Shown: piece after piece, positions 3,331 to 19,472 of the stretch
Layout: each line of letters opens with the position of its first letter
How positions within the stretch are numbered: position 1 is the first letter of the stretch
Assembly (NCBI GenBank): GCA_951812955.1
Contig: OX638340.1
Span: 2,080,001 to 2,144,000, forward strand
From: an uncultured Gemmatimonadota bacterium
GTDB taxonomy: Bacteria > JAAXHH01
DNA: 64,000 nucleotides
Direction: 5' to 3'
Notes under the pieces: model-generated
The model's database searches: none
The model's input: the letters and a program-made list of their open reading frames with translations, nothing else
Told to the model about the DNA's origin: nothing
Position numbers and translations under genes: made by a program

Positions 3331-3402
3331 TACGTCCACTCGTGCAGGGCATGTCCGCACGCAACGGCTTTTCAGCTACGCCCATTCGTGCAGGGCGTGT
3401 CC
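3331..3402. repeat. Two copies of a 26-bp sequence (tacgYccaYtcgtgcagggcRtgtcc), one inside the 3' end of the membrane-protein CDS and one just downstream
   Basis: 3331-3356 and 3377-3402 are 23/26 identical direct repeats spanning the stop of the 3376..5361 gene. Confidence 0.7.
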
Positions 3403-5361
3403 CTGGCCGGGAAACCAGATCCAGTCCACGACAAAACCCAGAAACACCCCCACGCTGTACCCCACGAGCACGCCCCAGGCAAAGGGCTGGGCCCGGCGGT
3501 AGATGGTCACCCCGCCGATCCGCATCAGCAGCATCTTGATCAGCCAGGCCAGGAACAGCGAGAACATGAGCAGGCGGGTCACGTCGGCGAAGGCCACGGT
3601 GAAGCCCACAGGTGCCAGGGGCCAGCCGGGAAACCGGTAGGTCAGGGTCGTCATGACCAGCATGATGACGCCGCCGAGAGCCATGAACAGGAACTCGGGC
3701 GGCTGTAGCTGGTCGGCGTTGCGGATCCACCGCACGATATCGTCGAAGTAGATCTCGTTGATGCCGCCGAAGGCGTCGCGCGTACCGAAGTTGTACGCGC
3801 CGATGGTCGTATTCCCGATGTAGATTGTGTACAGGACGGACGTCAGCATGCTGACAATGAAGGTGACGGTCATGAGGCCGAGAAGCCCCCGCTTGTCCAG
3901 TCGCAGGTCGGACAGTACCTTGTCGGACTGGGCGATGGTGCCGATCCCCATGCCCCGCCAGTTCCGGGCGTAGACGGATCCTAGGCCCAGGGTGGTCAGG
4001 CTCTGGGGATCGATGTTTCCCGAGCCGACGGTCAGTATGGTGAAATGGTGGGCGTTGACCGGAAGGTCCATGAAGGCCAGGCCTGTCTGTGCGATGATCC
4101 GTGCCGTGCCCAGGTACAGGATGAATAAGAACAACAGGTACACGGGCAGCATCTGCCAGGAAAGGCCCGATCCCACGAGCCAGGCCACCAGGTAGACCAG
4201 GCTGCCCGAGAATCCAAGCACGGCCACGCGATAGGACATCAACTCCGTGGCCGGACGCTCGCCGCCACGCAGGGCCTGCCGAAATACATCGGCGATCTGA
4301 GCGCGGGCAGTCCACAGGTGCCAGAATACGAATACGATGAATCCGCCGAAGAACTGGGCCTTGACCACAGCATTCACCCCCACCGGGCTGCCGGAATACT
4401 GGAGCCCGACGCGGTCCAGCAGGCCGCCTTCCAGCACGCCGCACAGGGCGAAGAACCAGAGGCTGAACGTGATCTCCAGCGGCGCCAGGAAAGCGAAGCA
4501 CAGGGCGTAGATGTTGACGCTGACCCTGATGGGATCGATGCCCTCCGCCAGGGTCATCGAACTCTGATAGAGCACGCCAATAGGTATGGGCGAAATGCCG
4601 CCCCAGAACGCGGCGATGTTCCAGATCATCAGGGCCAGGGCGGCGCCGAAGCCCACCTGGAACATGCGGTCGTACACGAAGCCGGGAAAGGTCCGTTCGG
4701 TCCGTTCGTCGTGCCGGATCAGGTCGACGGCCATCTGTACGAGGGGAAAGGAAAGCCGCTCGTGGGCCACCCAGGTCCTCCGCATGATGGTGGACATGCA
4801 TGCGCCCATGAAGAACAGCACGACGAAGAGGGTCAGCCACCAGAAGAGGGGCGGGAGCCAGGGCCCCCAGATGACGTTGCCGGCTCCTTCCGGGATTCCT
4901 TCGTAGAACCACACCAGCGTGTTGCCCTGGCCGCTGACCAGCAGCCAGTCCGGCAGATATTCGAAGAAGGTGGCCTCCCACTGGTTCTCAGGCCGCGCAA
5001 AATAATACGGCGTGGCGATGACCCCCATGAGATAAGCGACCAGGACCTTGCCCGGCACGAGGGAGGAAACGAACATCATCACGAAGACCAGGGCCAGCTC
5101 GCTTCCGCTCAGCACCCAGGCCGGTCTCCATGTTCTCAGCGCCGGGTTGACGATGAGCAGGAGGAAGAAGAAGGGGATCAGGACCGCGATGGGCAGGTGG
5201 GACATCGTCATGCGGGAGGACTGCACGAGGAAGGAGCCGAAGGGGACCCAGATGTTGATCAGGACAGCGAGGGCCAGACCCAGGACTACGGCGCGGCGGG
5301 ATATGCCGGCTGATCGCGATATACCGGGTCGCGGGATACCAATGCGCGGTTTGGTTGCCAT
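3376..5361 (-). CDS. Large polytopic inner-membrane protein of unknown function (~661 aa, >=12 predicted TM helices)
   Basis: Minus-strand ORF with many strongly hydrophobic segments (PIAVLIPFFFLLLIV.., LALVFVMMFVSSLV.., LFWWLTLFVVLFFMGA..). The overlapping ORF 3257..4981 in another frame is a GC-rich shadow. No family recognised. Confidence 0.55.
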   Translation of the reverse strand: MATKPRIGIPRPGISRSAGISRRAVVLGLALAVLINIWVPFGSFLVQSSRMTMSHLPIAVLIPFFFLLLIVNPALRTWRPAWVLSGSELALVFVMMFVSSLVPGKVLVAYLMGVIATPYYFARPENQWEATFFEYLPDWLLVSGQGNTLVWFYEGIPEGAGNVIWGPWLPPLFWWLTLFVVLFFMGACMSTIMRRTWVAHERLSFPLVQMAVDLIRHDERTERTFPGFVYDRMFQVGFGAALALMIWNIAAFWGGISPIPIGVLYQSSMTLAEGIDPIRVSVNIYALCFAFLAPLEITFSLWFFALCGVLEGGLLDRVGLQYSGSPVGVNAVVKAQFFGGFIVFVFWHLWTARAQIADVFRQALRGGERPATELMSYRVAVLGFSGSLVYLVAWLVGSGLSWQMLPVYLLFLFILYLGTARIIAQTGLAFMDLPVNAHHFTILTVGSGNIDPQSLTTLGLGSVYARNWRGMGIGTIAQSDKVLSDLRLDKRGLLGLMTVTFIVSMLTSVLYTIYIGNTTIGAYNFGTRDAFGGINEIYFDDIVRWIRNADQLQPPEFLFMALGGVIMLVMTTLTYRFPGWPLAPVGFTVAFADVTRLLMFSLFLAWLIKMLLMRIGGVTIYRRAQPFAWGVLVGYSVGVFLGFVVDWIWFPGQGHALHEWA

Positions 5362-5711
5362 GGTCTGGTACGCCGAAAGGACAAAGGAAACCGGTTTTTA
5401 GCGGTGAAAGGATTCCGGGTCTGTACGCTGAATTCAATATATCCGGTTCCCAACAGGCGGCACAACCCTAGATTTGGAACGCAAAGCCAAGGTCATGGTT
5501 TTTGCTTGAACCGGTGCTTCAACCTTTTTATATTGCTTTGTTCAAGAATGCAACGGCTCACTACGCTCGGGATGTATGCGTCTGATCGGGCCTCGCGGCA
5601 GTTCCGGGCCTTCCCATGTTAATCAGCGATGTCAAACGCGAAAGCGGCGAAATGCGCGGCTGCGAGGGTGCGGAACCGCCGGTTGCCGGATACCGACAGG
5701 GGTAGCAAGTC

Positions 5712-8700
5712 ATGTGGTCAAAGATAAAAACAGGGATCGGCATCACCATAGCACTGCTGATGTTGTCCTCGGTCACCATATTCCATCCCAAGGATATTAC
5801 CGAGAACATCCTGATGAAGCTGATCTCCCTGCCCGAACCCCAGGAGATTCAGCCCTTCCTTGGCCACGACCGTCCCCTCGAGGAGGCCCTGCGGGCGGTC
5901 AGCGCAGATTCGATCTCAAACACGGTAAAAACCCTCTCTTCCTATACTTCCCGCGTCGTGGGCTACGCCGGCGCCGATTCAGCCTACGAGTACCTGAAGG
6001 CCGAGTTTGAAGAGATCGGACTGGAGGACATCCGCACGGAGACGTTCCCGGTCACGGTGCCTATGGACAAGGGCTCGAAACTGACGGTGCTGGAGACAGG
6101 CGAGGTAATCCCGCTTCATGCCCTCTGGCCGAATCTCGTGCGCACGCCGACCACCCCCAGGGACGGCCTGACCGGCCCGATCGTCTACGGCGGCAAGGGG
6201 GAATTCGGCGAATTCAACGGGTACGACATCCAGGGCAGCGTCGTACTCATGGATTTCGACTCGCAGGACCGGTTCATCAACGCCCGGATGCTGGGCGCCA
6301 GCGCCATCGTATTCTTCGACAACGGACGGGTGACGCGGAGCGAAGCAGAACTCAAATTCATGGGGCTTCCGCTGAACGTACCCCGCTACTGGGTAGACAA
6401 GGCGCACGTACCCGGCCTGCTGGAACTTGCCGAATCCGGAACGAACCAGGTGAATGTCCAGGCCCGTATGGAATGGGAGGTCGTGGAAGGAAAGAACATC
6501 TTCGGCTGGATTCCCGGCCTTGACGAGGAAATGCCAAACGCCCGGGACGAGACCCGCACAAAATGGAAGGACTACACGATCGTCATCGAGTCCTACTATG
6601 ACGCCATGTCGGTGGTCCCGGGTCTGGCGCCCGGTGCGGAAAGCGCCACCGGCGTCGCCGCGCTGCTTGAGGTCGCCAGGGCGATGAAGCGGTACAGTCC
6701 CAAGTATTCGGTGGTCATCCTGGCCACGTCCGCTCATTTCATGGGACTGGAAGGGACGCACAACTGGTTGTACCGGCACGGCAGGGCGAGCAGTTACTTC
6801 ATGTCGAGAATCCCCGAGGAAGACAAGATCGATTTCGACATTTTCTTCGGGATCGATCTCTCAAGCCACGATTCCCGCATCGGAAGTTTCGCCTTCGGCA
6901 CCTTCGACAACGCGGCCTGGGCGACCAACCACTACATCAAGAACATCTTCGCGCCTTATTCGAGGAAATTCGCGGGCTACATCCAGGAGGCCTTCGGGGC
7001 CGGGGCGGACTCGGCCAGGTACGTCAACGCCATCGTGCCGCCGCAGCGAACCTGGAAGGACTTCATGCCCGTCAAGCTGGGGCTGGACAGCGAGGCCGTC
7101 ACGTACTTCGGCAAGAAGGGCATGTCCTTCGTCACACCGAACGGGACCCGTGGCCTGGTGGACACGCCCCAGGACCGATTCGAGTCGGTCAACATCGACA
7201 ATATCACCGAGCAGGCGCGTTCCCTCGCGGTCATGCTCGCCCGGGCCTCCACCGACGGCGAACTCTTCGAGGAGACCAAGCTCAAGATCCAGGACACGGC
7301 CCATGACATGGCGGGCACCGTTTATGAATTCGACCGGGACGTCAATTTCTTCGTCCCCAAGAAACCCATCCCCGGCGCGCTGGTCACCTACTTCAAGAGC
7401 CTGACCAATACGGGCGTGCGGGGCATCCTGATCAACAAGGCCGATTCCCTGGGCCGTTTCAACTTCCGTCCGCTGAAACAGCAGAAGGGTCCGATCAAGC
7501 TTCGGTCGTACGCCCTTGACGACGAGGGCGAGATCATCTACGCGCCGGACCTGGGCCAGGAAGGCGACAAGACCTTCCCCCTGAACGCGGCGAGCGGCGC
7601 AAACGAGAACACCACCCTCCAGATCGTTTTCCGCGCCAAGGCCCTCGACGTGTACGAGATCATCGACTCCCGTTACCTGACCGCGCTGGACCAGTTGACC
7701 GTCCTGGCGCAGAACGACGCCGAGCCCCAGTGGTACGGCCACAGTTACATTGAAAAGCAGAGCGGCTCGGAGGGTCGGACCGTGCCCGCGGCCGTCGTCT
7801 TCGCCAAGCCGGGCCAACACGTCAAGCTGCTCATGAGCACAAGCCTCTTCGGCGTCAAGTACCTGTTGACCAACGCGCCTGATTCCTTCCTGAAGGACCC
7901 CGTCGAGCCGGGCGAAGTGACTCTGGAACTCCTGGAACAGGCCCAGGGACAGGGCTACCCGATCGACCAGGGGCTGATCGTAAATCCGTCCTACCAGGGC
8001 ACGCGGGACATGTGGGTCGTGGACGACGTCCGGCTCAAGCAACTCGCGCGCTTCGGCGTGGAGAACCAGCGCATCGAGCAATTGCACGAACAGGCGCGCG
8101 TCACCCTCCTCGAGGCGGAGGAGCACCTCGCGAACAGGGAGTACGACGCCTTCATCTCCAAGTCGCGTGAGGCCTGGGGCCTCGAGGCGCGGGGCTACCC
8201 GGAGGTCAAGTCCACGGCGGACGACACGGTCAAGGGCGTGATCTTCTATTTCATCCTGCTCATCCCCTTTTCCTTCTTCATGGAACGTCTGGTCTTCGGT
8301 TTTCCGACGATCAACAAGCGGATCTTCGGTTTCTCCGTCTTCTTCATTGCGGTTTTTCTCGTGCTGCAGCTGGTACATCCCGCCTTCAAGCTCAGCACGT
8401 CGCCCTACGTCATCTTCCTGGCCTTCGTCATCTTCGCGCTGGGGACGACCGTGCTCATCATCGTCCTGTCGAAGTTCAACCAGGAAGTACAGAAGATCAA
8501 GCGCGCGCAGACCGGCATGCACGAGGCCGACATCGGCCGGTTGAGCGCCACGGCCGTAGCCCTGTCGCTGGGCGTTTCCAATCTGCGCAAGCGAAAGGTC
8601 CGCACGGCCCTCACGGCGGCCACCATCACGCTGCTCACTTTTACCGTGCTGTCCTTCACGTCCATCACGACGTCGCTGAGATACTACAAGCTGGAACGGT

Positions 8701-10340
8701 ACAACGAACCGACCTATGAAGGGACGCTGGTCCGGGACCGTAACTGGAAAGGGCTGCAGCCCTCCGTATACGATTATCTGAAGAGCACTTTCCAAGACAA
8801 GGCCACGCTGATACCCCGCGCCTGGTACATGTCCCAGGTCAAGGGTGAGAAGGGCTTCTTCGCCTTCTCGTCGCCCAGTTCGTCCCGCGAAAGCTACGTG
8901 AACAGCATCCTGGGACTGACGCCGGACGAGCCAAGGGCGACCGGGCTCGATGATTACCTCCTTGGGGGAAGATGGTTCCTGCCCGGCGAACGGGACGCCG
9001 TCATACTGCCCGACGACGTTGCAAGAGTGGTGGGCATCGCGCCGGAAGACGCTGGTTCCGCCTTCGTCGACATGTTCGGCATGCGGCTGCAGGTCGTCGG
9101 CGTGATCGATTCCCGCCGGTTCAACCAGCTCAAGGACCTGGACGACGAAAAGCTCACGCCCGTCGACCTGGTCCAGGAGAAAGGCAAGATCGCGCAGCGC
9201 ATCGGCGAGGACCCCCGCCTGCAGGCCGAATCCCCGCCTGAAGCCTTCATACACCTCGAATCCAATAACGTCATGATCCTGCCGTACGAGACGGTCATGG
9301 ACCTCGATGGAAAGACCTATTCGGTCGCCATCACCGACTTCCTGGACGAGAGCGGGCAGCCGAACCCCGATTTCGATCGCGATATCGAGGACTTCCTCTC
9401 GCGGGTCGCCATGACCATGTTCGTCGGCAAGGACGGTACCGTAAACGTATACAGTTCCATCGGTTCCACCTCCATCGGCGGCATCGGCAACTTCCTCATC
9501 CCCATCCTCGTCGCCGCCATGATCGTGCTGAACACCATGATGGGCGCGGTCCACGAACGCTTCCGGGAGATCGGCGTCTACAGCTCGGTCGGACTGGCGC
9601 CGAGCCATATCGCGGCGCTGTTCCTGGCGGAGTCCTCCGTCTTTGCCACGGTCGGCGCCGTACTGGGCTACCTGGGGGGACAGACCATCACCCTCGTACT
9701 GTCGAATTACGACATCCTCGCCGGTCTTTCGCTGAACTATTCCTCCCTGTCGGCCGTCTGGTCGGTCGTCGTGGTCATGGCCACGGTGTTCCTGTCGACG
9801 GCCTACCCGGCCAAGAGGGCGGCGGACATGGCCGTGCCTGACGTGGGCCGGGAATGGAAATTCCCCGAGCCCGATGGAGACGACTGGAGCTTCGATTTCC
9901 CCTTCACCATCGGAAGCGTCGAGGTACTGGGCATGTACGCCTATCTCACGCGGGTCTTCGAATCCTACGAGGAGGGTTCCCTGGGCGCGTTCGTCACGGA
10001 GAACGTCCGGTTGACCGCCGTGGAAGGCCCATCGGACCAACCCATGTACCACATCTCGATGATGACCTGGCTCGCGCCCTACGACCTGGGTATCAGCCAG
10101 AAGGTTTCTCTCAGTGCCGCGCCGGCGGAAAATGAAAAAGATCTCTACGCCGTGTGGGTGGACATCCACCGCGAGAGCGGCGACGTGGCGTCCTGGCAGC
10201 GCATTAACCGGCGCTTCCTGAGCGTGCTGCGCAAACGCTTCCTGGTCTGGCGCACCCTTTCCCAGGATCTCAAGAACGAATACGCGGCGACTGGGAGGGA
10301 AGCGACCAAAAAGACGCAAGAAGCGGAACTGCCCGTATGA
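5712..10340 (+). CDS. Fusion protein: N-terminal signal anchor + extracytoplasmic M28-family zinc peptidase (with PA-like insert) + linker region + three TM helices + FtsX/MacB-type permease module (1542 aa)
   Basis: N-terminal TM (GIGITIALLMLSSVTIF). M28-like metal-binding region (..ESATGVAALLEVARAMKRYSPKYSVVILATSAHFMGLEGTHNWL..). Mid-protein TMs (VIFYFILLIPFSFF.., IFGFSVFFIAVFLVLQLV.., VIFLAFVIFALGTTVLIIVL). FtsX-type signature TM1 (LRKRKVRTALTAATITLLTFTVLSF) followed by a ~300-aa periplasmic loop. Second FtsX motif (ERFREIGVYSSVGLAPSHIAALFLAESSVF) and three C-terminal TMs. The antisense ORF 6861..10319 is a shadow. Confidence 0.65.
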   Translation: MWSKIKTGIGITIALLMLSSVTIFHPKDITENILMKLISLPEPQEIQPFLGHDRPLEEALRAVSADSISNTVKTLSSYTSRVVGYAGADSAYEYLKAEFEEIGLEDIRTETFPVTVPMDKGSKLTVLETGEVIPLHALWPNLVRTPTTPRDGLTGPIVYGGKGEFGEFNGYDIQGSVVLMDFDSQDRFINARMLGASAIVFFDNGRVTRSEAELKFMGLPLNVPRYWVDKAHVPGLLELAESGTNQVNVQARMEWEVVEGKNIFGWIPGLDEEMPNARDETRTKWKDYTIVIESYYDAMSVVPGLAPGAESATGVAALLEVARAMKRYSPKYSVVILATSAHFMGLEGTHNWLYRHGRASSYFMSRIPEEDKIDFDIFFGIDLSSHDSRIGSFAFGTFDNAAWATNHYIKNIFAPYSRKFAGYIQEAFGAGADSARYVNAIVPPQRTWKDFMPVKLGLDSEAVTYFGKKGMSFVTPNGTRGLVDTPQDRFESVNIDNITEQARSLAVMLARASTDGELFEETKLKIQDTAHDMAGTVYEFDRDVNFFVPKKPIPGALVTYFKSLTNTGVRGILINKADSLGRFNFRPLKQQKGPIKLRSYALDDEGEIIYAPDLGQEGDKTFPLNAASGANENTTLQIVFRAKALDVYEIIDSRYLTALDQLTVLAQNDAEPQWYGHSYIEKQSGSEGRTVPAAVVFAKPGQHVKLLMSTSLFGVKYLLTNAPDSFLKDPVEPGEVTLELLEQAQGQGYPIDQGLIVNPSYQGTRDMWVVDDVRLKQLARFGVENQRIEQLHEQARVTLLEAEEHLANREYDAFISKSREAWGLEARGYPEVKSTADDTVKGVIFYFILLIPFSFFMERLVFGFPTINKRIFGFSVFFIAVFLVLQLVHPAFKLSTSPYVIFLAFVIFALGTTVLIIVLSKFNQEVQKIKRAQTGMHEADIGRLSATAVALSLGVSNLRKRKVRTALTAATITLLTFTVLSFTSITTSLRYYKLERYNEPTYEGTLVRDRNWKGLQPSVYDYLKSTFQDKATLIPRAWYMSQVKGEKGFFAFSSPSSSRESYVNSILGLTPDEPRATGLDDYLLGGRWFLPGERDAVILPDDVARVVGIAPEDAGSAFVDMFGMRLQVVGVIDSRRFNQLKDLDDEKLTPVDLVQEKGKIAQRIGEDPRLQAESPPEAFIHLESNNVMILPYETVMDLDGKTYSVAITDFLDESGQPNPDFDRDIEDFLSRVAMTMFVGKDGTVNVYSSIGSTSIGGIGNFLIPILVAAMIVLNTMMGAVHERFREIGVYSSVGLAPSHIAALFLAESSVFATVGAVLGYLGGQTITLVLSNYDILAGLSLNYSSLSAVWSVVVVMATVFLSTAYPAKRAADMAVPDVGREWKFPEPDGDDWSFDFPFTIGSVEVLGMYAYLTRVFESYEEGSLGAFVTENVRLTAVEGPSDQPMYHISMMTWLAPYDLGISQKVSLSAAPAENEKDLYAVWVDIHRESGDVASWQRINRRFLSVLRKRFLVWRTLSQDLKNEYAATGREATKKTQEAELPV

Positions 10341-11245
10341 AGTTCGCCTTCTGCAACGAGATGTTCCGGGACGTGCCCCTCCGGCAGATCTTCCGCACCG
10401 CCGCGGAAATCGGCTACGACGGCGTGGAGATCGCCCCGTTTACGGTGGCCTCTTCGGTGAACCAGGTCGGTCCGGACACACGGAAGGCGATCCGCGACGA
10501 CGCAGCGGAATTCGGACTGGAGATCACGGGACTCCACTGGCTCCTGCTCAGTCCGGAAGGCCTTTATCTGAACCACCCCGACGACGGCATCCGGTACTGC
10601 ACCCGGCTGTATCTCTGCGACCTGATCAAATTCTGCGGTGACATTGGGGGCCGGGTCATGGTGGCCGGGTCACCGAAGCAGCGCGACGTGCTGCCGGACC
10701 AGACCTACGAGGCGACCTGGGAACGGACCCGTCAGGCATACCTGGAATGCCTGCCCGCGGCGGAGGAACACGGGGTGACCATCTGCCTCGAGCCCCTGGA
10801 CAGCGCCCAGACCAATTTCATCAACACCCCAGCCGAAGCCGCCCGGATGGTCCGGGAGATCGATCATCCGAATTTCCGCATGATCATCGACGTGCGGGCG
10901 ACCCTGTGCCAGGGTCTGGACGCAGCCGCGGCCATTCACGAGCATAAGGACGATATGGCCTACGTCCACTTCAACGACGCCAGCGGCAACGGCCCGGGTT
11001 TCGGAGAAACCGATTTCACGCCCATTCTGCAGGCGCTTCGAGACACCGGATACGAAGGGTACGGTTCGGTGGAGGTGTTCGACTATTCCTACGGAGCGGA
11101 GCACATCGCCAGGAAGAGCCTCGAGACGTTGAAGACGGCCTGGGCGGCAACGGACGCTGCGGAAGAGGGGGCGGCGACGGACGCGGCGGGTGAGCGCGCG
11201 ACCGGGCCGGATCAGGACGCGGCGGAAGAGGGGGCGGCCCGTTGA
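10337..11245 (+). CDS. Sugar phosphate isomerase/epimerase (xylose-isomerase-like TIM barrel) with Ala/Glu/Asp-rich C-terminal tail
   Basis: MKFAFCNEMFRDVPLRQIFRTAAEIGYDGVEIAP.. is typical of the AP-endonuclease-2/xylose isomerase-like family. The C-terminal 35 aa are low-complexity (AATDAAEEGAATDAAGERATGPDQDAAEEGAAR), produced by the duplicated 17-mer gcggaagagggggcggc. Start overlaps the stop of the upstream giant gene (ATGA). Confidence 0.7.
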   Translation: MKFAFCNEMFRDVPLRQIFRTAAEIGYDGVEIAPFTVASSVNQVGPDTRKAIRDDAAEFGLEITGLHWLLLSPEGLYLNHPDDGIRYCTRLYLCDLIKFCGDIGGRVMVAGSPKQRDVLPDQTYEATWERTRQAYLECLPAAEEHGVTICLEPLDSAQTNFINTPAEAARMVREIDHPNFRMIIDVRATLCQGLDAAAAIHEHKDDMAYVHFNDASGNGPGFGETDFTPILQALRDTGYEGYGSVEVFDYSYGAEHIARKSLETLKTAWAATDAAEEGAATDAAGERATGPDQDAAEEGAAR

Positions 11246-11775
11246 AACAACAGGTCCTCGATAAGGACGGTATCGACCGGGCAGTGTCCCGTATCGCCCG
11301 CCAGATCCTGGAACGCAACAAGGGCGCGTCCGGCATCGTCATCGTCGGCATCCAGCGGCGTGGAGACTGGATCGCGCGGCGGCTGGCCGGCGCCATATGC
11401 GAGGCGGAAGACACGGCCGTTCCGGTCGGCGTACTGGACATCAACCTGTACCGGGACGACCTCCAGGTCCGCGCGGACTACCCCGTCGTCCGCACCACGG
11501 ACATCCCTTTCGACATCGAAGGGCGCACTGTCATCCTGGTCGACGATGTCCTCTACACCGGCCGAACCATCCGGGCAGCGCTGGACGAATTGAAGGATTT
11601 CGGCAGGGCACGGCGCATCGAGCTCGCCGTTCTAATCGAACGGGAGGGCAGGGAACTTCCCATCCAGGCGGATTACGTGGGTGAGCATATCGAAGTCGGC
11701 GCCGGCAGGACCGTGGTGGTGCACGTCCATGAGCTGGACCGGGACGACAACGTCGCGGTGGAGGAGGCGGTGTGA
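11242..11775 (+). CDS. pyrR: Bifunctional pyrimidine operon regulator / uracil phosphoribosyltransferase PyrR
   Basis: 177 aa (MKQQVLDKDGIDRAVSRIARQILERNKG..VILVDDVLYTGRTIRAALDEL..) with the PRTase-type phosphoribosyl-binding motif. The track start is a TTG that overlaps the upstream stop codon. Confidence 0.8.
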   Translation: MKQQVLDKDGIDRAVSRIARQILERNKGASGIVIVGIQRRGDWIARRLAGAICEAEDTAVPVGVLDINLYRDDLQVRADYPVVRTTDIPFDIEGRTVILVDDVLYTGRTIRAALDELKDFGRARRIELAVLIEREGRELPIQADYVGEHIEVGAGRTVVVHVHELDRDDNVAVEEAV

Positions 11776-12731
11776 TGAGTGAAGATCATCTATACGCGCT
11801 GCGCCACCGGCACCTGATCGGCCTCGAGGACTACTCCCATGCTGAAATCCGCCTTATCCTGGATACGGCGGACTCCTTCAAGGAAGTGATCCGGCGGCCC
11901 ATACGCAAGGTACCCGCCCTGCGGGGGAAGAACGTCGTCAACCTCTTCTTCGAATCGAGCACCCGCACGCGGCTGTCCTTCGAACTGGCCGAGAAGCAGC
12001 TCTCTGCGGACACACTGAATTTCGCTTCCACCGGCAGCAGCGTTTCCAAGGGAGAATCCCTGGGCGACACGGCGCGGAACATAGAGGCCATGCAGGTGGA
12101 CTGCGTGGTGGTGCGTCATGCCGCGGCGGGCGCACCCCTTTTCCTTTCGCAGTGCCTGTCGAACGCGGTCGTCATCAACGCGGGCGACGGCGCCCACGAA
12201 CATCCCACACAGGGCCTGCTGGACCTCTTGACCATGCGGGACGCGCTGGGCGGACTGGAAGGCCTGAAGGTCGTGCTCGTCGGCGACATCGCCCACAGCC
12301 GGGTGGCGCGATCCAACATATGGGGACTCCGGAAAATGGGCGCCCGCGTCGTCGTCTGCGGTCCGCCCACGCTGATCCCCGTCGACATCGAAGATATGGG
12401 CGTGGAGGTATGCTACCGGGTCGAGGACGCCCTCCGCGACGCCGACGTGGTCTACGCCCTGCGGATACAGCTTGAAAGACAGCACGAAGCCTTCTTCCCT
12501 TCGCTCCGCGAATACACACGGTTGTTCGGCATCGACCCCGAACGGCTGGAACTCGCGAAGCCCGGCGCCGTCGTCATGCATCCCGGACCCATCAACCGCG
12601 GCGTGGAACTCGACAGCCGGGTGGCGGACAGCGGCAGGTCGGTCATCCTGGACCAGGTGACCAATGGGGTCGCCGTTCGCATGGCGGTCCTCTATCTCCT
12701 CAACGGCGGAGGCGAGCGCGATGCGGCCTGA
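11775..12731 (+). CDS. pyrB: Aspartate carbamoyltransferase catalytic subunit
   Basis: STRTRLSFE carbamoyl-phosphate-binding motif and the HPTQ motif; length ~318 aa. ATG at 11775, immediately after a GTG at 11772, and overlaps the pyrR stop. Confidence 0.9.
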   Translation: MSEDHLYALRHRHLIGLEDYSHAEIRLILDTADSFKEVIRRPIRKVPALRGKNVVNLFFESSTRTRLSFELAEKQLSADTLNFASTGSSVSKGESLGDTARNIEAMQVDCVVVRHAAAGAPLFLSQCLSNAVVINAGDGAHEHPTQGLLDLLTMRDALGGLEGLKVVLVGDIAHSRVARSNIWGLRKMGARVVVCGPPTLIPVDIEDMGVEVCYRVEDALRDADVVYALRIQLERQHEAFFPSLREYTRLFGIDPERLELAKPGAVVMHPGPINRGVELDSRVADSGRSVILDQVTNGVAVRMAVLYLLNGGGERDAA

Positions 12732-14046
12732 CGGACCGGATACATCCGGAAGCGCGGGGATCACGGAGATCCGCAACGGACGCATCATCGATCCCGCTTC
12801 CGGCCGTGACGAACAGGGCGATCTCTGGATCCGCGAGGGAAGGATCGTCGATCGGCCCGCGGACGGCGATGCAAAGGGCGCCACCGTCATTGACGCTACC
12901 GGCCAACTCGTCCTGCCCGGTCTGGTCGATATGCACGTCCACCTCTGCGAACCCGGATACGAATACAGGGAAACCCTTGAAAGCGGGGCGCTCGCGGCCG
13001 TCGCGGGCGGCATCACCGGCGTGGCGTGTATGCCGGATACCGATCCGGTCGTCGACGACGCGCCCGCCGTGAGATTCGTTCGAGCCCGGGCAGCCGGAGC
13101 GGCGGCGAAGGTTTATCCTATTGCCGCGCTCACGGCCGGAAGAGCGGGAGAACGCCTGACCGAAATAGGCGAACTGGCCGAGGCTGGCGCCGTGGCGCTG
13201 TCCGAAGCGGACCGGTCCATCCGGAATCCAGCCATCCTGCGGCGCGCCTTCGAATACGGCCGGATGTTCGACCTGCCCATCATCGTGCACTGCGAAGACC
13301 CGTCGCTCTCCGCCGGCGGCGTCATGCACGAAGGAAGCCACGCAACCCGGCTGGGCCTGAAGGGCATACCCTCCATCGCGGAAGAAACCGTCGTGGCAAG
13401 GGACCTCATGCTGGCGGAGTGGACGGGCGGGCGGATCCACATCACCCAGGCCAGTACGGCCGTGACGGCCGGTCTCATAAGAGCGGCTAAGCAGCGGGGC
13501 GTCAACGTGACCGCCGATGTCAGTCCTCACCACCTGGCGCTGACCGATGAAGCGCTGTCCACGTTCGATACCCATCTGAAAACCAACCCGCCCCTCAGGA
13601 GCAAGGCGGACGTCGACGCGCTCCGGGAGGGCCTGGCGGACGGGACCATCGACGCCATCGCATCGGATCACACGCCGCGGTCCGTGGACGAAAAGAACAC
13701 GGAGTTCCAGGAAGCGCTGTCAGGCGCCACGGGTCTTGAAACCATGCTGGCCGTCGTGTTTACCGAGATGGTCGGACCCGGCCTGCTGACCCTGAACGAC
13801 GCGGTGAGGGTCATGTCCACGTCCCCCGCGGGAATACTGGGGATTGAAGGCGGCAGCCTGTCTTCCGGCGCTCCGGCCGACCTCACCCTCTTCGACCCGG
13901 ATGGAACCTGGACCGTGGACCCCGCGTCCTTTAAATCAAGATCCGCCAATACGCCTTTCGCTGGCCGCGAACTGAAAGGAAGCGTAACGGTAACCATCGT
14001 CGGCGGCCAGGTAAGATACCGGCGCGATGGTCCCGAATCATCTTGA
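12721..14046 (+). CDS. pyrC: Dihydroorotase (multimeric, allantoinase-like type)
   Basis: ..LVLPGLVDMHVHLCEPGYEYRETLESGALAAVAGGITGV.. metal-binding HxH and cyclic amidohydrolase fold. ATG at 12721 overlaps the pyrB stop by 11 nt, consistent with a pyrR-pyrB-pyrC operon. Confidence 0.85.
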   Translation: MRPDGPDTSGSAGITEIRNGRIIDPASGRDEQGDLWIREGRIVDRPADGDAKGATVIDATGQLVLPGLVDMHVHLCEPGYEYRETLESGALAAVAGGITGVACMPDTDPVVDDAPAVRFVRARAAGAAAKVYPIAALTAGRAGERLTEIGELAEAGAVALSEADRSIRNPAILRRAFEYGRMFDLPIIVHCEDPSLSAGGVMHEGSHATRLGLKGIPSIAEETVVARDLMLAEWTGGRIHITQASTAVTAGLIRAAKQRGVNVTADVSPHHLALTDEALSTFDTHLKTNPPLRSKADVDALREGLADGTIDAIASDHTPRSVDEKNTEFQEALSGATGLETMLAVVFTEMVGPGLLTLNDAVRVMSTSPAGILGIEGGSLSSGAPADLTLFDPDGTWTVDPASFKSRSANTPFAGRELKGSVTVTIVGGQVRYRRDGPESS

Positions 14047-14177
14047 CTGTGAGGCGTCAATTACGTAGATTTAAACGTCTGTGTTATTTTGATTTCACCG
14101 GAATCGCTCATTAAAATGCGTACCCATGGCAGGCCTCGAAGATGCGCAGTCGACGTACCTGTCGAAAGGAGTCTCTA

Positions 14178-15377
14178 ATGTTATTCAGGAAAGTTGGCAT
14201 CTGCGTTTTGTTTGCCCTCGGGTTCGCCATGCTGGTACCCGTCGCGGCCGACGCGCAGAAAATCGAACTACGTTCCGCGAAAATCTACATCCGCGAAACA
14301 CCGCCCCAGTGGGACAAGGCCATGGAACTGCTCGAGACCGCATTGGAAAAGGATCCGGGCAACAACGACGCCCACTATCTCCTCGGGCTAATTCATTACT
14401 ACCAGGGAAATTTCGACCTGATGTTCCATAATTGGAAAGCGGTTACCTTTGACGATCTGGACAGGCAAGACAAAAGCCGGTACAGGGATACCCTGACCTC
14501 GATGATCCGCAGGAACTACGAGACGGCCACGCGAAACTATGAACAAGGTGTATTCGCGGAAGCGGCCGTTTACTACAGTCGTTCCGTCGACGCGACCTCG
14601 ATGCTGCAGGACATGTTGCGATCAACAGGCAAGAATGATGATGCAAAGACCGCCGACGAGCTGGATCCCGCCAAGCAACAGGGCTACCTGTACTGGGGTT
14701 ACGCCGCCCTGGCCGCGGAAGATTATGAAGATGCCGGGATGGCGCTGGAGACACTTCTCGAATCGGACCCGAACAAGTTCGAAGCCTGGGACGGCCTGGT
14801 CAACGTGTACTTCAACACACAAAACTGGGACAAGGTGATCACGGCCTCCGACAAGGTCATCGGTTTGTCTGAAGAAGTGGATCTCAACGCCTTCCTCATC
14901 ATGCGCAACGCCTATTTCGCACAAGCCGACACGGCCGGTGTGATCTCGTCGTACGAGCGGGCGATCGCAGCGTTTCCGGAAGAAAAGTCGCTGTACCGGG
15001 ACGTCAGTTCGATCCATGTCACCCGGAGCAACCTGGGTATGGCGATCGAAGTGCTGGAAAGGGGACACGCCGCCCTTCCCGAGGACATCGATTTGCTGAG
15101 TTACCTGGGAACCCACTATTACAACAAGGCGTTGTCCGATCGGGATGCCGGAAACAGTGAAGCCGCCCTGTCGGCGTTTCAGGGTTCGGTGGACAGCATG
15201 AACAAACTATTGGTGCTGCAGCCGAATAACATCGAAGCCTACGATGTACTCGGCGATGCCTATATCGGACTGGCCAGCATCGAAACCGACGAGGCCAAGA
15301 AAATGGAGTTGTTTACCAAGGGAGAAGCATACCAGAAGAAGAAACTGGAACTGATCACTTCGGGAGACGGCATGTAG
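14178..15377 (+). CDS. Secreted tetratricopeptide-repeat (TPR) protein
   Basis: ATG at 14178 preceded by AAGGAG. Signal peptide (MLFRKVGICVLFALGFAMLVPVAADA) and multiple TPR-like helical repeats (AHYLLGLIHYYQGNFD.., GYLYWGYAALAAEDYEDA..). Confidence 0.65.
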   Translation: MLFRKVGICVLFALGFAMLVPVAADAQKIELRSAKIYIRETPPQWDKAMELLETALEKDPGNNDAHYLLGLIHYYQGNFDLMFHNWKAVTFDDLDRQDKSRYRDTLTSMIRRNYETATRNYEQGVFAEAAVYYSRSVDATSMLQDMLRSTGKNDDAKTADELDPAKQQGYLYWGYAALAAEDYEDAGMALETLLESDPNKFEAWDGLVNVYFNTQNWDKVITASDKVIGLSEEVDLNAFLIMRNAYFAQADTAGVISSYERAIAAFPEEKSLYRDVSSIHVTRSNLGMAIEVLERGHAALPEDIDLLSYLGTHYYNKALSDRDAGNSEAALSAFQGSVDSMNKLLVLQPNNIEAYDVLGDAYIGLASIETDEAKKMELFTKGEAYQKKKLELITSGDGM

Positions 15378-18710: not shown

Positions 18711-19472
18711 GTGTCTGACGAAACCCAACCCATCATCGCGTTTGAGAATGTAAGCAAGTGGTTCGGGACTTTCCAGGTCCTGCGGGACATCGATCTGCGC
18801 ATCGGCGACGGTGAGTGCATCGTCATCTGCGGCCCGTCCGGCTCGGGGAAGTCCACGCTGATACGCTGCATGAACCGCCTTGAAACACATGACCGGGGCG
18901 TGGTCCGCGTAGAAGGCGTTGAGCTGGGACCGGGCGAGCGGCTTCCCCGCGAACTGCGCGGCAAAATCGGCATGGTCTTCCAGAGTTTCAACCTTTTCCC
19001 GCACATGACGGTCCTGCGCAACCTGTCGCTCGCCCCCATGCGCAACCTGGGGATGGATAAAGAAAGGGCGGAACAAACCGCCCTGGCCTATCTCGAGCGC
19101 GTGCACATCGGCGAACAGGCCGAGAAGTACCCCGACCAGCTCTCCGGCGGCCAGCAGCAGCGAGTGGCGATCGCCCGCGCGCTTTGCATGAAGCCCGATA
19201 TCCTGCTCTTCGACGAACCCACGTCCTCCCTCGACCCGGAAATGATCCGCGAGGTCCTGGACGTGATCTACGAACTCACCGACGACGGCATCACCATGGT
19301 CTGCGTGACCCACGAAATGGGTTTCGCCCGCAAGGTATCCGACCGGGTCATCTTCATGGACCACGGCGAAATCGTCGAGAGCGCCGCGCCGGACGAGTTC
19401 TTCGACGCGCCCCGGGAAGAAAGAACCCGGGCCTTCCTCAACCAGATCCTCCATTACGAGGCTTCGGCGTGA
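18711..19472 (+). CDS. Polar amino-acid ABC transporter ATP-binding protein (GlnQ/ArtP-like)
   Basis: Walker A (GPSGSGKST), signature [15 protein letters not shown], Walker B ([12 protein letters not shown]), H-loop (VTHEMGFA). GTG start. Confidence 0.9.

Follow-up and report, generated by a model that had tools for sequence, protein, structure and literature searches.

Type VII ABC systems (MacB, LolCDE, FtsEX, and BceAB) are the model for passing the energy of cytoplasmic ATP to work in the periplasm, and, in every characterised case known to us, that work is done by a modest periplasmic domain or by a recruited partner. MacB (of MacAB-TolC), LolC/LolE, YtrF, HrtB, and YbbP have in common a four-helix FtsX-type module with a periplasmic core between TM1 and TM2 and an ERxREIG coupling helix, and peptides are among the known substrates of MacB-type pumps. 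Two unequal FtsX-type permeases are served by one ATPase in LolCDE (LolC and LolE with LolD) and, as unequal BceB halves, in BceAB, and FtsEX with EnvC, PcsB, or RipC brings an FtsX-type module together with a peptidase-family domain. The Acidobacterial duplicated orphan permeases (ADOP, TIGR03434) are FtsX-type permeases usually found without a neighbouring ATPase gene, and motor loss has been proposed for them. The protein described here, encoded in a 64-kb window (the whole stretch of DNA that was analysed), is a single, real eight-TM chain uniting a PA/M28-like module with a MacB/FtsX-type module, and it belongs to a large family so far uncharacterised.

The gene is one uninterrupted open frame on the plus strand (1542 codons and a stop), and hydropathy gives its product a count of eight TM helices. 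The features of the locus are as follows.

3376..5361, minus strand: divergent partner gene, encoding a 661-aa DUF6785 + DUF6784 polytopic membrane protein of the OPT/Yellow-Stripe transporter fold
5362..5711, no strand: divergent intergenic region of 350 nt common to both genes, the presumed promoter region
5712..10340, plus strand: whole gene (1542 aa, eight TMs), encoding a PA/M28-like ectodomain, a MacB-type module, and a C-terminal cytoplasmic domain (ORF and translation; full-length homologues)
5724..5780, plus strand: N-terminal signal-anchor TM, aa 5-23 (hydropathy)
5844..7271, plus strand: periplasmic PA + M28-like module with a non-canonical metal site, aa ~45-520 (Pfam, PDB matches, family column counts)
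7272..8237, plus strand: conserved extracytoplasmic extension, aa ~521-842 (many invariant residues)
8238..8465, plus strand: three extra TM helices preceding the FtsX module, aa 843-918 (hydropathy; helices in the AF2 model)
8466..8666, plus strand: cytoplasmic amphipathic segment with an NLRKRKVR motif, then FtsX TM1, aa 919-985 (hydropathy, AF2 model)
8667..9473, plus strand: MacB-like periplasmic core domain, aa 986-1254
9474..9803, plus strand: FtsX TM2-TM4 with the invariant coupling-helix motif ERFREIGVYSSVGLAPSH, aa 1255-1364
9804..10337, plus strand: cytoplasmic C-terminal alpha+beta domain, aa ~1365-1542

The Pfam scan of the 1542-aa protein places FtsX at aa 1263-1372 (54.9 bits, cut-off 25.5) and Peptidase_M28 at aa 287-442 (35.7 bits, cut-off 21.3); PA at aa 154-206 scores marginally below its cut-off (21.4 against 23.9 bits), and PA matches are recorded for many homologues. 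The initial annotation, which joined an extracytoplasmic PA/M28-type module and a MacB/FtsX-type permease in one chain, is borne out by Pfam, an AF2 model of the C-terminal part, and structural matches; both are folded, conserved domains. Between them, the ~320-aa extension (aa ~521-842), apparently helical at its C-terminal end, gave no Pfam match (aa 440-863 searched) and no PDB sequence match; the region described as a ~300-aa linker does exist, but with so many invariant residues over aa ~520-842 it is more than a linker.

Homologues of 1541-1543 aa, 84-94% identical, align across 100% of their length, so that the fusion is neither a frameshift nor an assembly chimera, a possibility raised by the initial annotation. 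Full-length homologues span 40-94% identity, and more than 100 of them, from independent assemblies that include closed chromosomes, keep the same order and length; the complete genome OY762445.1 carries an orthologue of the large gene that is 98% identical, and in the family alignment conservation is unbroken across every domain junction. OZ241838.1 and OY843748.1 are further closed relatives, and Gemmatimonas MAGs (L068 and L085) also have the family. The architecture is present in at least 589 species-level genomes of Latescibacterota, Gemmatimonadota, and others, and the C-terminal domain has 1388 representatives at 50% identity, so this domain order is common, an outcome that the initial annotation had itself counted as a refutation, and the supposed rarity of the arrangement does not hold. 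It does appear to be undescribed: no specific family model was found for the whole architecture, and literature searches on DUF6785, on FtsX with M28 in Latescibacteria, and on orphan FtsX-like permeases returned nothing on it. Representatives of ~600 aa that resemble stand-alone proteins of FtsX plus the C-terminal domain were rejected as N-terminally truncated fragments or chimeras (P0328 begins within the cytoplasmic linker and P0429 carries a foreign N-terminus). One family member, of 2451 aa, has an N-terminal LysM domain and an NMB0315-like domain I.

The M28-like module has PDB sequence or profile matches to 2ek8, YwaD, AAP, nicalin, and TfR1, and its homology to M28 in fold and sequence is given by the Pfam score together with the family profile (E 4.7e-17 against 2ek8 and 9e-11 against YwaD); 2ek8 and YwaD, which are PA-containing M28 aminopeptidases, likewise have a PA insert within the M28 fold. 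With the zinc ligands numbered as in the Vibrio aminopeptidase (His97, Asp117, Glu152, Asp179, and His256), their equivalents are Y295, E310, F343, D382 (assigned by motif position), and S460, respectively, and the site as a whole (Y295, D297, E310, H342, F343, D382, and S460) follows the pattern YxD, E, HF, D, S instead of HxD, D, EE, D, H. Three of the five ligands of the co-catalytic zinc pair are replaced both here and throughout the family, where the equivalents of His97, Glu152, and His256 are Tyr or Phe, Phe, and Ser, and the place of the catalytic general base Glu151 is taken by H342, invariant in 121/121 close members and present in 83 of ~89 aligned distant ones. D297, E310, H342, and D382 are conserved in the family, and the Glu-Glu pair occurs in none of the 121 close and 94 distant sequences. 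The second PDB sequence match, behind 2ek8, is 2anp, an AAP entry that has His as residue 151. Because the canonical di-zinc site is replaced family-wide, the label of protease given in the initial annotation is doubtful on the evidence of these residues, while the strict conservation of the substituted site suggests a retained function of a different kind. Catalytic residues have likewise been lost in TfR1 (the transferrin receptor) and nicalin, both sequence matches and both non-peptidase M28 homologues in membrane proteins, and the inactive LytM domain of EnvC is also a peptidase-family domain without canonical metal ligands; compared with TfR1, nicalin, 2ek8, and YwaD, however, the present protein is bacterial, is fused to an ABC-type permease, and has a substituted site that is itself strictly conserved.

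In the C-terminal half, hydropathy places the module helices at aa 967-985 (TM1), 1255-1273 (TM2), 1300-1320 (TM3), and 1346-1364 (TM4), with a periplasmic domain of 269 aa (aa 986-1254) between TM1 and TM2. Three features assign it to type VII: four TMs with a large extracytoplasmic domain of the MacB core fold between TM1 and TM2, an FtsX domain above the curated threshold, and an ERFREIG coupling helix of the ERxREIG type between TM2 and TM3. The four-TM arrangement is supported by the AF2 model (pLDDT 87.4), MacB_PCD is on record for several homologues, and the segment at aa 919-985 aligns to the MacB N-terminal TM region in profile and PDB comparison. ERFREIG aligns with the equivalent motif of YtrF and MacB, and E1282, R1283, E1286, I1287, G1294, and other coupling-helix residues are invariant across 35 to 81 sequences; the conserved loop motif had been recognised correctly, but it was said to precede three TMs, whereas it lies between TM2 and TM3 and two TMs follow. 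The best structural matches are MacB and other type VII permeases (LolC/LolE, YtrF, HrtB, and YbbP), with FtsEX chains among the matches, and the best sequence matches are likewise MacB and type VII permeases. Scores with the NCBIfam FtsX models fall well short of the cut-offs (NF038346, 18.1 against 250 bits; NF038347, 11 against 225 bits), as do those with the LolC/E models, and the earlier analogy with FtsEX and its hydrolase gives way to a MacB/LolC/YtrF-like module. Membership of the cell-division FtsX family was rejected on these scores and on the lack of a nearby ftsE-like gene; assignment to ADOP was rejected with a single FtsX domain in the chain and 21.4 bits against a cut-off of 622.3 for TIGR03434.

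Compared with MacB, the protein lacks a fused ATPase, and none is adjacent in the window; it has ~960 additional N-terminal residues (signal anchor, PA/M28-like module, extension, and three TMs) and an additional ~175-aa cytoplasmic domain at the C-terminus, and neither a membrane-fusion protein nor a TolC-like gene, as in MacAB-TolC, is seen near it. From FtsEX it differs in its MacB-like periplasmic domain and in having no ftsE gene and no division-gene context, and from FtsEX with EnvC, PcsB, or RipC in that the peptidase-family domain is M28, not LytM/M23 or CHAP/NlpC, and is covalently fused, not recruited. ADOP proteins are similarly FtsX-type and without a neighbouring ATPase gene, but their chains contain two FtsX domains and lack an M28 module. 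The C-terminal domain had gone unremarked in the initial annotation; it is cytoplasmic, conserved, and present after TM4 in every member, and it has no Pfam or PDB match by sequence. Its fold is similar to helix-grip (Bet v 1/START) or KA1 lipid-binding modules, it is not an ATPase, and it might take up the surface for ATPase docking.

As for the motor, the six-frame scan for Walker A and ABC signatures found a single ABC ATPase in the 64 kb, the glnQ-like gene at 18711..19472, and two BPD_transp_1 permease genes follow this gene in a close relative; the initial annotation, which gave the glnQ-like gene two permeases of its own, was right that no MacB/FtsE-type ATPase lies near. Neither such an ATPase nor a small FtsX-like permease is encoded in the window, and the 1542-aa chain contains neither a Walker A motif nor an ABC signature and, therefore, no energy source. 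Nevertheless, six related assemblies (L002/3, L019, L076, L083, L092, and L093) have the large gene in a tight cluster, all on one strand, with genes for a small FtsX-like permease and a MacB/LolD-type ATPase; in the L083 cluster the genes overlap by 4 nt or lie 18 nt apart. This runs counter to the description of the protein as self-contained. The linked permease has 214-228 aa and no periplasmic domain, and the six loci are scattered over distant clades of the family tree, the deepest included. The arrangement recalls LolCDE and BceAB in its two unequal FtsX-type permeases and one ATPase, but the partners here have ~1500 and ~220 aa, the latter almost without a periplasmic loop, and the pairing is read from gene order alone. 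The linkage is found in only 6 of ~75 informative loci, and within 10 kb of most loci, the window among them, there is no MacB-type ATPase. Gemmatimonadetes MAGs also have orthologues of the small permease and its ATPase by themselves at another locus, so the pair may be a housekeeping system that happens to be close by in some genomes. ATPases near the deep-branching loci L082 and L084 were rejected as partners, being those of binding-protein-dependent importers (BPD_transp_1, TOBE). The large protein is probably not self-contained: given the linkage in six related assemblies, it is no less likely to have a partner ATPase encoded at another locus than to have none at all.

The linkage to OPT-fold genes is much more constant than that to the ATPase, and is the most constant feature of the system: among the 70 loci having at least 5 kb on each flank, 67 have DUF6785 and/or a second family of ~680 aa within 10 kb, mainly on the same strand as the large gene and frequently abutting it. 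The divergent DUF6785/6784 gene 350 nt upstream, and with it the adjacency of OPT-fold transporter genes, had also escaped the initial annotation. Its product (3376..5361) has the OPT/YS1 membrane fold, resembling barley YS1 (7wsr) at only 11% identity; DUF6785 and DUF6784 alone match it, Pfam OPT (PF03169) does not, and DUF6785 found no match in the PDB by profile. The second neighbour family, paralogous and of ~660-680 aa, reaches 23.5-23.8 bits against 25.8 for Pfam OPT in L093 and L076. An in-frame fusion fragment of FtsX, C-terminal domain, and DUF6785 occurs in a single case (P0437), and distant DUF6785 proteins are found without a large-protein partner. OPT transporters are symporters that use proton coupling to carry oligopeptides, glutathione, and metal chelates (PMC9691689, PMC12831333, PMC9131082). 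In the shared region 5362..5711, one sigma-70-like match at 5506-5534 (plus strand) does not exceed those in shuffled sequences, no Rfam family was found, and promoter and terminator scans gave nothing beyond chance. In L002/3, L019, L076, and L092, that is, in 4 of the 6 ATPase-linked clusters, genes for a PqqD-like protein (of the peptide-binding type) and a conserved ~300-aa protein separate the OPT-like gene from that of the small permease; L083, L093, the large majority of loci, and the window lack both. Further genes that recur nearby (SurA-like, metallophosphatase-like, thioredoxin-like, and dehydrogenase) were set aside as clade-specific synteny with no shared theme, and no recurrent cell-wall genes were found in the family neighbourhoods.

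Tentatively, and with less than even confidence, these data suggest that the protein is the larger subunit in an asymmetric ABC machine of type VII, which would cooperate with OPT-like transporters and probably act on peptides. The genes of the small permease and the ATPase would then lie elsewhere in the genome of the source organism, and the large and small permeases would form an asymmetric pair like LolC/LolE or the two BceB halves, as gene order alone suggests. ATP hydrolysis would shift the periplasmic core domain and the M28-like module along with it; this module may bind a peptide-like ligand, or process it non-canonically, and the adjacent OPT-like transporters would take that ligand, or products made from it, across the inner membrane. 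The real fusion, the invariant coupling helix, the operon link, the OPT link, and the P0437 fusion favour this explanation, and the peptide theme draws on the OPT family, the aminopeptidase-derived module, and the PqqD-like protein in 4/6 clusters; the absence of the small permease and ATPase from the window, the linkage at only 6 of ~75 loci, the separate occurrence of the pair, and a C-terminal domain that might take up the ATPase-docking surface speak against it. The substrate may also be something other than a peptide, as metal chelates and glutathione are likewise transported by the OPT superfamily (PMC9691689, PMC12831333).

A rather unlikely alternative is a complex independent of any ATPase, in which a motorless MacB-type module would be a scaffold or receptor subunit of OPT-like transporters, with the PA/M28-like module as a tethered ligand-binding domain and the lipid-binding-like C-terminal domain replacing the ATPase on the cytoplasmic side. 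This would agree with the absence of a MacB-type ATPase within 10 kb of most loci, the window among them, the far steadier OPT linkage, the additional cytoplasmic domain after TM4 in all members, and the in-frame DUF6785 fusion, and, as distant DUF6785 proteins function without the large protein, the latter could be an accessory; nevertheless, the invariant coupling-helix motif is hard to account for without a docking partner, and the tight small-permease/ATPase operons occur in six assemblies and in deep clades. It is improbable that the protein is an envelope-remodelling regulator in the style of FtsEX-EnvC, whose degenerate metallopeptidase domain, moved by the FtsX-type module, would activate or position a cell-wall enzyme: the metal ligands are degenerate yet the site is conserved, LysM and NMB0315-like domain I occur in the 2451-aa member, and FtsEX chains are among the structural matches, but the module is nearer to MacB, LolC, and YtrF than to FtsX (11-18 bits against 225-250 in NCBIfam), the constant neighbours are transporters and not cell-wall genes, and LysM is confined to one representative. 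The self-contained mechanotransmission protease of the initial annotation, in which the FtsX module of the same chain would drive an active M28 zinc peptidase and no separate ATPase would be needed, is very unlikely; the domain order matches that description, the window has no nearby ATPase, and D297, E310, H342, and D382 could make an altered single-metal site, but ligands and the catalytic Glu are replaced, with the Glu-Glu pair in 0 of the 121 close and 94 distant sequences, and the chain has no energy source while related operons contain partner ATPase genes. Export and maturation of a ribosomal peptide, with the PqqD-like and ~300-aa proteins acting on a precursor that the MacB-type machine would expel and the M28-like module trim or hold, is equally improbable: both genes are present in the four clusters named above and MacB-type pumps handle peptides, but the genes are missing from L083, L093, most loci, and the window, neither a precursor peptide nor a modifying enzyme was identified, and OPT-family proteins are, to our knowledge, importers in all cases. 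That the long frame is an artefact, a chimera or a frameshift-joined pair of genes, has practically no chance and is already refuted by the more than 100 homologues of the same order and length and the continuous conservation at the junctions.

In this abundant family, which exceeds 1000 clusters at 50% identity, the permease is fused to an aminopeptidase-derived ectodomain of ~800 residues and to a lipid-binding-like cytoplasmic domain, and is linked genetically to OPT-fold transporters. These proteins could represent, although this is unlikely and speculative, a new class of envelope machine, in which a MacB-type module bearing a repurposed aminopeptidase-fold receptor would be physically coupled to OPT-fold secondary transporters, with a small-permease/ATPase motor or none, for the capture and uptake of peptides or chelates; if true, this class would combine primary with secondary transport, in Latescibacterota, Gemmatimonadota, and related phyla, in one hybrid system. 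More generally, the 'orphan' permease of one genome can have motor genes linked to it in relatives. If the parts act together, they would widen the known range of mechanotransmission systems and provide the first functional context for DUF6785/DUF6784 and bacterial OPT-like proteins, and they may partly explain how phyla that are little known and largely uncultured acquire peptides or chelates.

The giant gene at 5712..10340 (+) is one continuous open frame of 1542 codons in the window ORF translation, and its product contains eight transmembrane helices (TMs) by hydropathy, in a topology that agrees with the charge distribution.

Domains and topology of the giant protein
aa 5-23: N-terminal signal anchor (hydropathy)
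819 residues: ectodomain (topology and charge distribution)
aa 154-206: PA domain (Pfam, near-threshold)
aa 287-442: Peptidase_M28 domain (Pfam, 35.7 bits against a cut-off of 21.3)
aa 843-918: three TMs (hydropathy)
cytoplasmic segment with NLRKRKVR (topology and charge distribution)
aa 967-985, 1255-1273, 1300-1320 and 1346-1364: four TMs of the FtsX module (hydropathy)
269 residues: periplasmic domain of the FtsX module (topology and charge distribution)
aa 1263-1372: FtsX domain (Pfam, 54.9 bits against a cut-off of 25.5)
~175 residues: cytoplasmic tail (topology and charge distribution)

The Pfam matches to FtsX and M28, the hydropathy profile and an ATPase scan bear out the initial annotation of this ORF except in three small respects: hydropathy gives two, not three, TMs after the ERFREIG loop, the region taken for a linker is conserved, and the C-terminal domain (aa ~1365-1542) had been overlooked. 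In the NCBIfam search the MacB, LolC/E, ADOP, FtsX and aminopeptidase models all remained below threshold, and no curated family covered the protein. A 1152-aa antisense ORF (6861..10319, -) and several more long shadow ORFs lie within the gene; these are typical at ~62% G+C and should not be called genes.

The presumed rarity of this domain order was not sustained. Of the 633 clusters from the protein search, over 100 are full-length (about 1460-1620 aa), share the domain order and show 40-94% identity, with Latescibacteria, Gemmatimonadetes, Zixibacteria and Planctomycetes among the named sources. When each species was represented by one genome, at least 589 loci came to light, with two or three paralogues in several genomes and, among the matches listed, a top identity of 99% in a Gemmatimonadetes MAG; the C-domain alone retrieved 1388 representatives at 50% identity, in nearly all of which it is the C-terminal part of a 1450-3050-aa chain. 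Longer members gain Big_5 or LysM modules and keep M28 and FtsX; in three representatives (P0339, 2451 aa; P0325 and P0329, ~3000 aa), LysM with an NMB0315-like domain I, or Big_5 Ig-like domains, precede the M28-like module. Conservation runs unbroken over all domain junctions, and the fusion is genuine rather than chimeric. The earlier view that the architecture lacks a described family still stands, since literature searches found no paper on it and no specific family model was found.

The AlphaFold2 model of aa 850-1542 (81 sequences, pLDDT 87.4) has MacB as its best Foldseek match (E 1.3e-12), followed by LolCDE, the pneumococcal Spr0693-5 system, YtrEF, HrtBA, YbbAP, BceAB and FtsEX, and the coupling-helix motif ERFREIGVYSSVGLAPSH is nearly invariant across the family. 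The tail, of beta-alpha-beta4-alpha-alpha order, has no sequence match in Pfam or PDB, and among its structural matches of the right size, assigned from matched lengths and secondary-structure order rather than a residue map, are lipid- or hydrophobic-ligand-binding modules. A Walker A motif is missing as well, and the tail is not a hidden ATPase. As originally stated, no partner ATPase lies nearby: the sole ABC ATPase signature in the 64-kb window is that of the glnQ-like gene (18711..19472, +), part of a type I importer unrelated to the giant protein; in the related locus L001, two BPD_transp_1 permease genes follow it.

For the peptidase-like half, profile searches with the family gave matches to 2ek8, an M28 aminopeptidase that contains a PA domain (E 4.7e-17), to YwaD (E 9e-11) and to the Vibrio aminopeptidase, as well as to the non-catalytic M28 relatives nicalin and transferrin receptor.

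Active-site residues of the Vibrio aminopeptidase and their counterparts in the giant protein (from alignments, except Asp179, by motif position)
His97, metal ligand: Y295
Asp99, second shell: D297
Asp117, bridging metal ligand: E310
Glu151, catalytic base: H342
Glu152, metal ligand: F343
Asp179, metal ligand: D382
His256, metal ligand: S460

Among 121 close members, position 295 is Y in 53, F in 41 and H in 26, D297 and H342 are invariant (121/121 each), and E310 and F343 occur in 115 and 109, respectively; 94 more distant representatives keep the same pattern, none with the Glu-Glu pair. On these counts the canonical M28 di-zinc aminopeptidase site has been lost from the protein and its family, which is thus probably not a protease in the usual sense. 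The conservation of the substituted site argues for a retained role, which may lie in binding a ligand or in some other chemistry with a single metal.

Gene order was compared in 87 loci (86 related loci and the window). In 55 of them a DUF6785 gene, 380 aa or longer in 53, lies within 10 kb of the giant gene, often abutting it on the same strand. A second polytopic family of ~660-700 aa is encoded on the strand of the giant gene in 62, usually immediately downstream, and 59 of these have a copy of 550 aa or more. One or both families are present in 67 of the 70 loci whose flanks reach 5 kb or more on both sides. The second family is collinear with DUF6785 (hhalign E 8e-4 over 506 columns, ERLxFPL in both), and two of its members match Pfam OPT slightly below threshold (E 2e-5). 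In P0437, a 1035-aa contig fragment, the FtsX module, C-domain and DUF6785 share a single frame with a ~50-residue linker, which may reflect a true fusion of the genes or the loss of a stop codon. This gene order strongly supports a functional tie between the giant protein and OPT-fold transporters, which is very likely. Distant DUF6785 proteins stand alone in Poribacteria and Armatimonadota; therefore, the giant protein is not generally needed by the transporter. In L001, which encodes a giant protein of 91% identity, the DUF6785 and giant genes are separated by an insertion (5208..9353) of a pair of transposase genes (Transposase_mut, DDE_Tnp_1) and two small ones.

Downstream in the window, a 302-aa xylose-isomerase-like TIM-barrel gene (AP_endonuc_2; 10337..11245, +) overlaps the giant stop codon through ATGA, as in L001 and ~13 loci confined to this clade, and may be co-translated. 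It is followed directly by a pyrimidine run (11242..14046, +; PyrR-like phosphoribosyltransferase, aspartate carbamoyltransferase, dihydroorotase-like amidohydrolase) and a TPR protein (14142..15377), in a synteny kept in L001.

In six assemblies (L002/3, L019, L076, L083, L092 and L093), two further genes come after the giant and OPT-like genes in the same orientation, one for a small FtsX-like permease (214-228 aa, periplasmic loop of only ~40 residues) and one for a MacB/LolD-type ATPase (243-260 aa), with a 4-nt overlap and an 18-nt gap in L083. The fullest cluster, L092, comprises DUF6785, TPR, giant, OPT-like, ~300-aa protein, PqqD-like, small permease and ATPase genes. In four of the six, genes for a conserved ~300-aa protein without a Pfam match and for a PqqD-like (peptide-binding) protein separate the OPT-like gene from that of the small permease.

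Positions of the ~300-aa and PqqD-like pair
L002: 17586..18959
L019: ~8100..9498
L076: 16402..17753
L092: 14234..15532

The cluster loci are scattered over far-apart clades of a neighbour-joining tree, the deepest included, which suggests an old linkage, later dispersed. Against linkage, the permease and ATPase pair also occurs by itself, at a different locus, in Gemmatimonadetes MAGs. The pair is absent from the 64-kb window; coupling of the giant protein to an unlinked copy is plausible, with the balance slightly in its favour, and the giant protein is probably not self-contained. In the Gemmatimonadetes MAG loci L089-L091 (8195..11498), an orthologous pair directly follows a 583-aa PDZ/S41 (CtpB-like) peptidase gene and may form a separate protease-linked FtsX-type system.

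The reading that best accommodates these observations, in which the giant protein would act with the small permease, the ATPase and the OPT-like transporters, is tentative, falling a little short of even, and a peptide ligand, to which the OPT, M28 and PqqD theme points, is possible but somewhat more doubtful. It is unlikely that the giant protein serves as an ATPase-independent accessory or scaffold of those transporters, the tie to which is shared by the preferred reading, and improbable that it is an EnvC-like envelope regulator. The self-contained protease initially proposed is more improbable still, in view of the missing di-zinc site and the permease and ATPase genes of the six assemblies, and a system for peptide export and maturation fares no better. 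With its architecture, fold and family membership established, the giant protein is real and uncharacterised, though not rare, and its family is a kind of type VII ABC permease, marked by the unusual domains fused to it and by a transporter as conserved partner.
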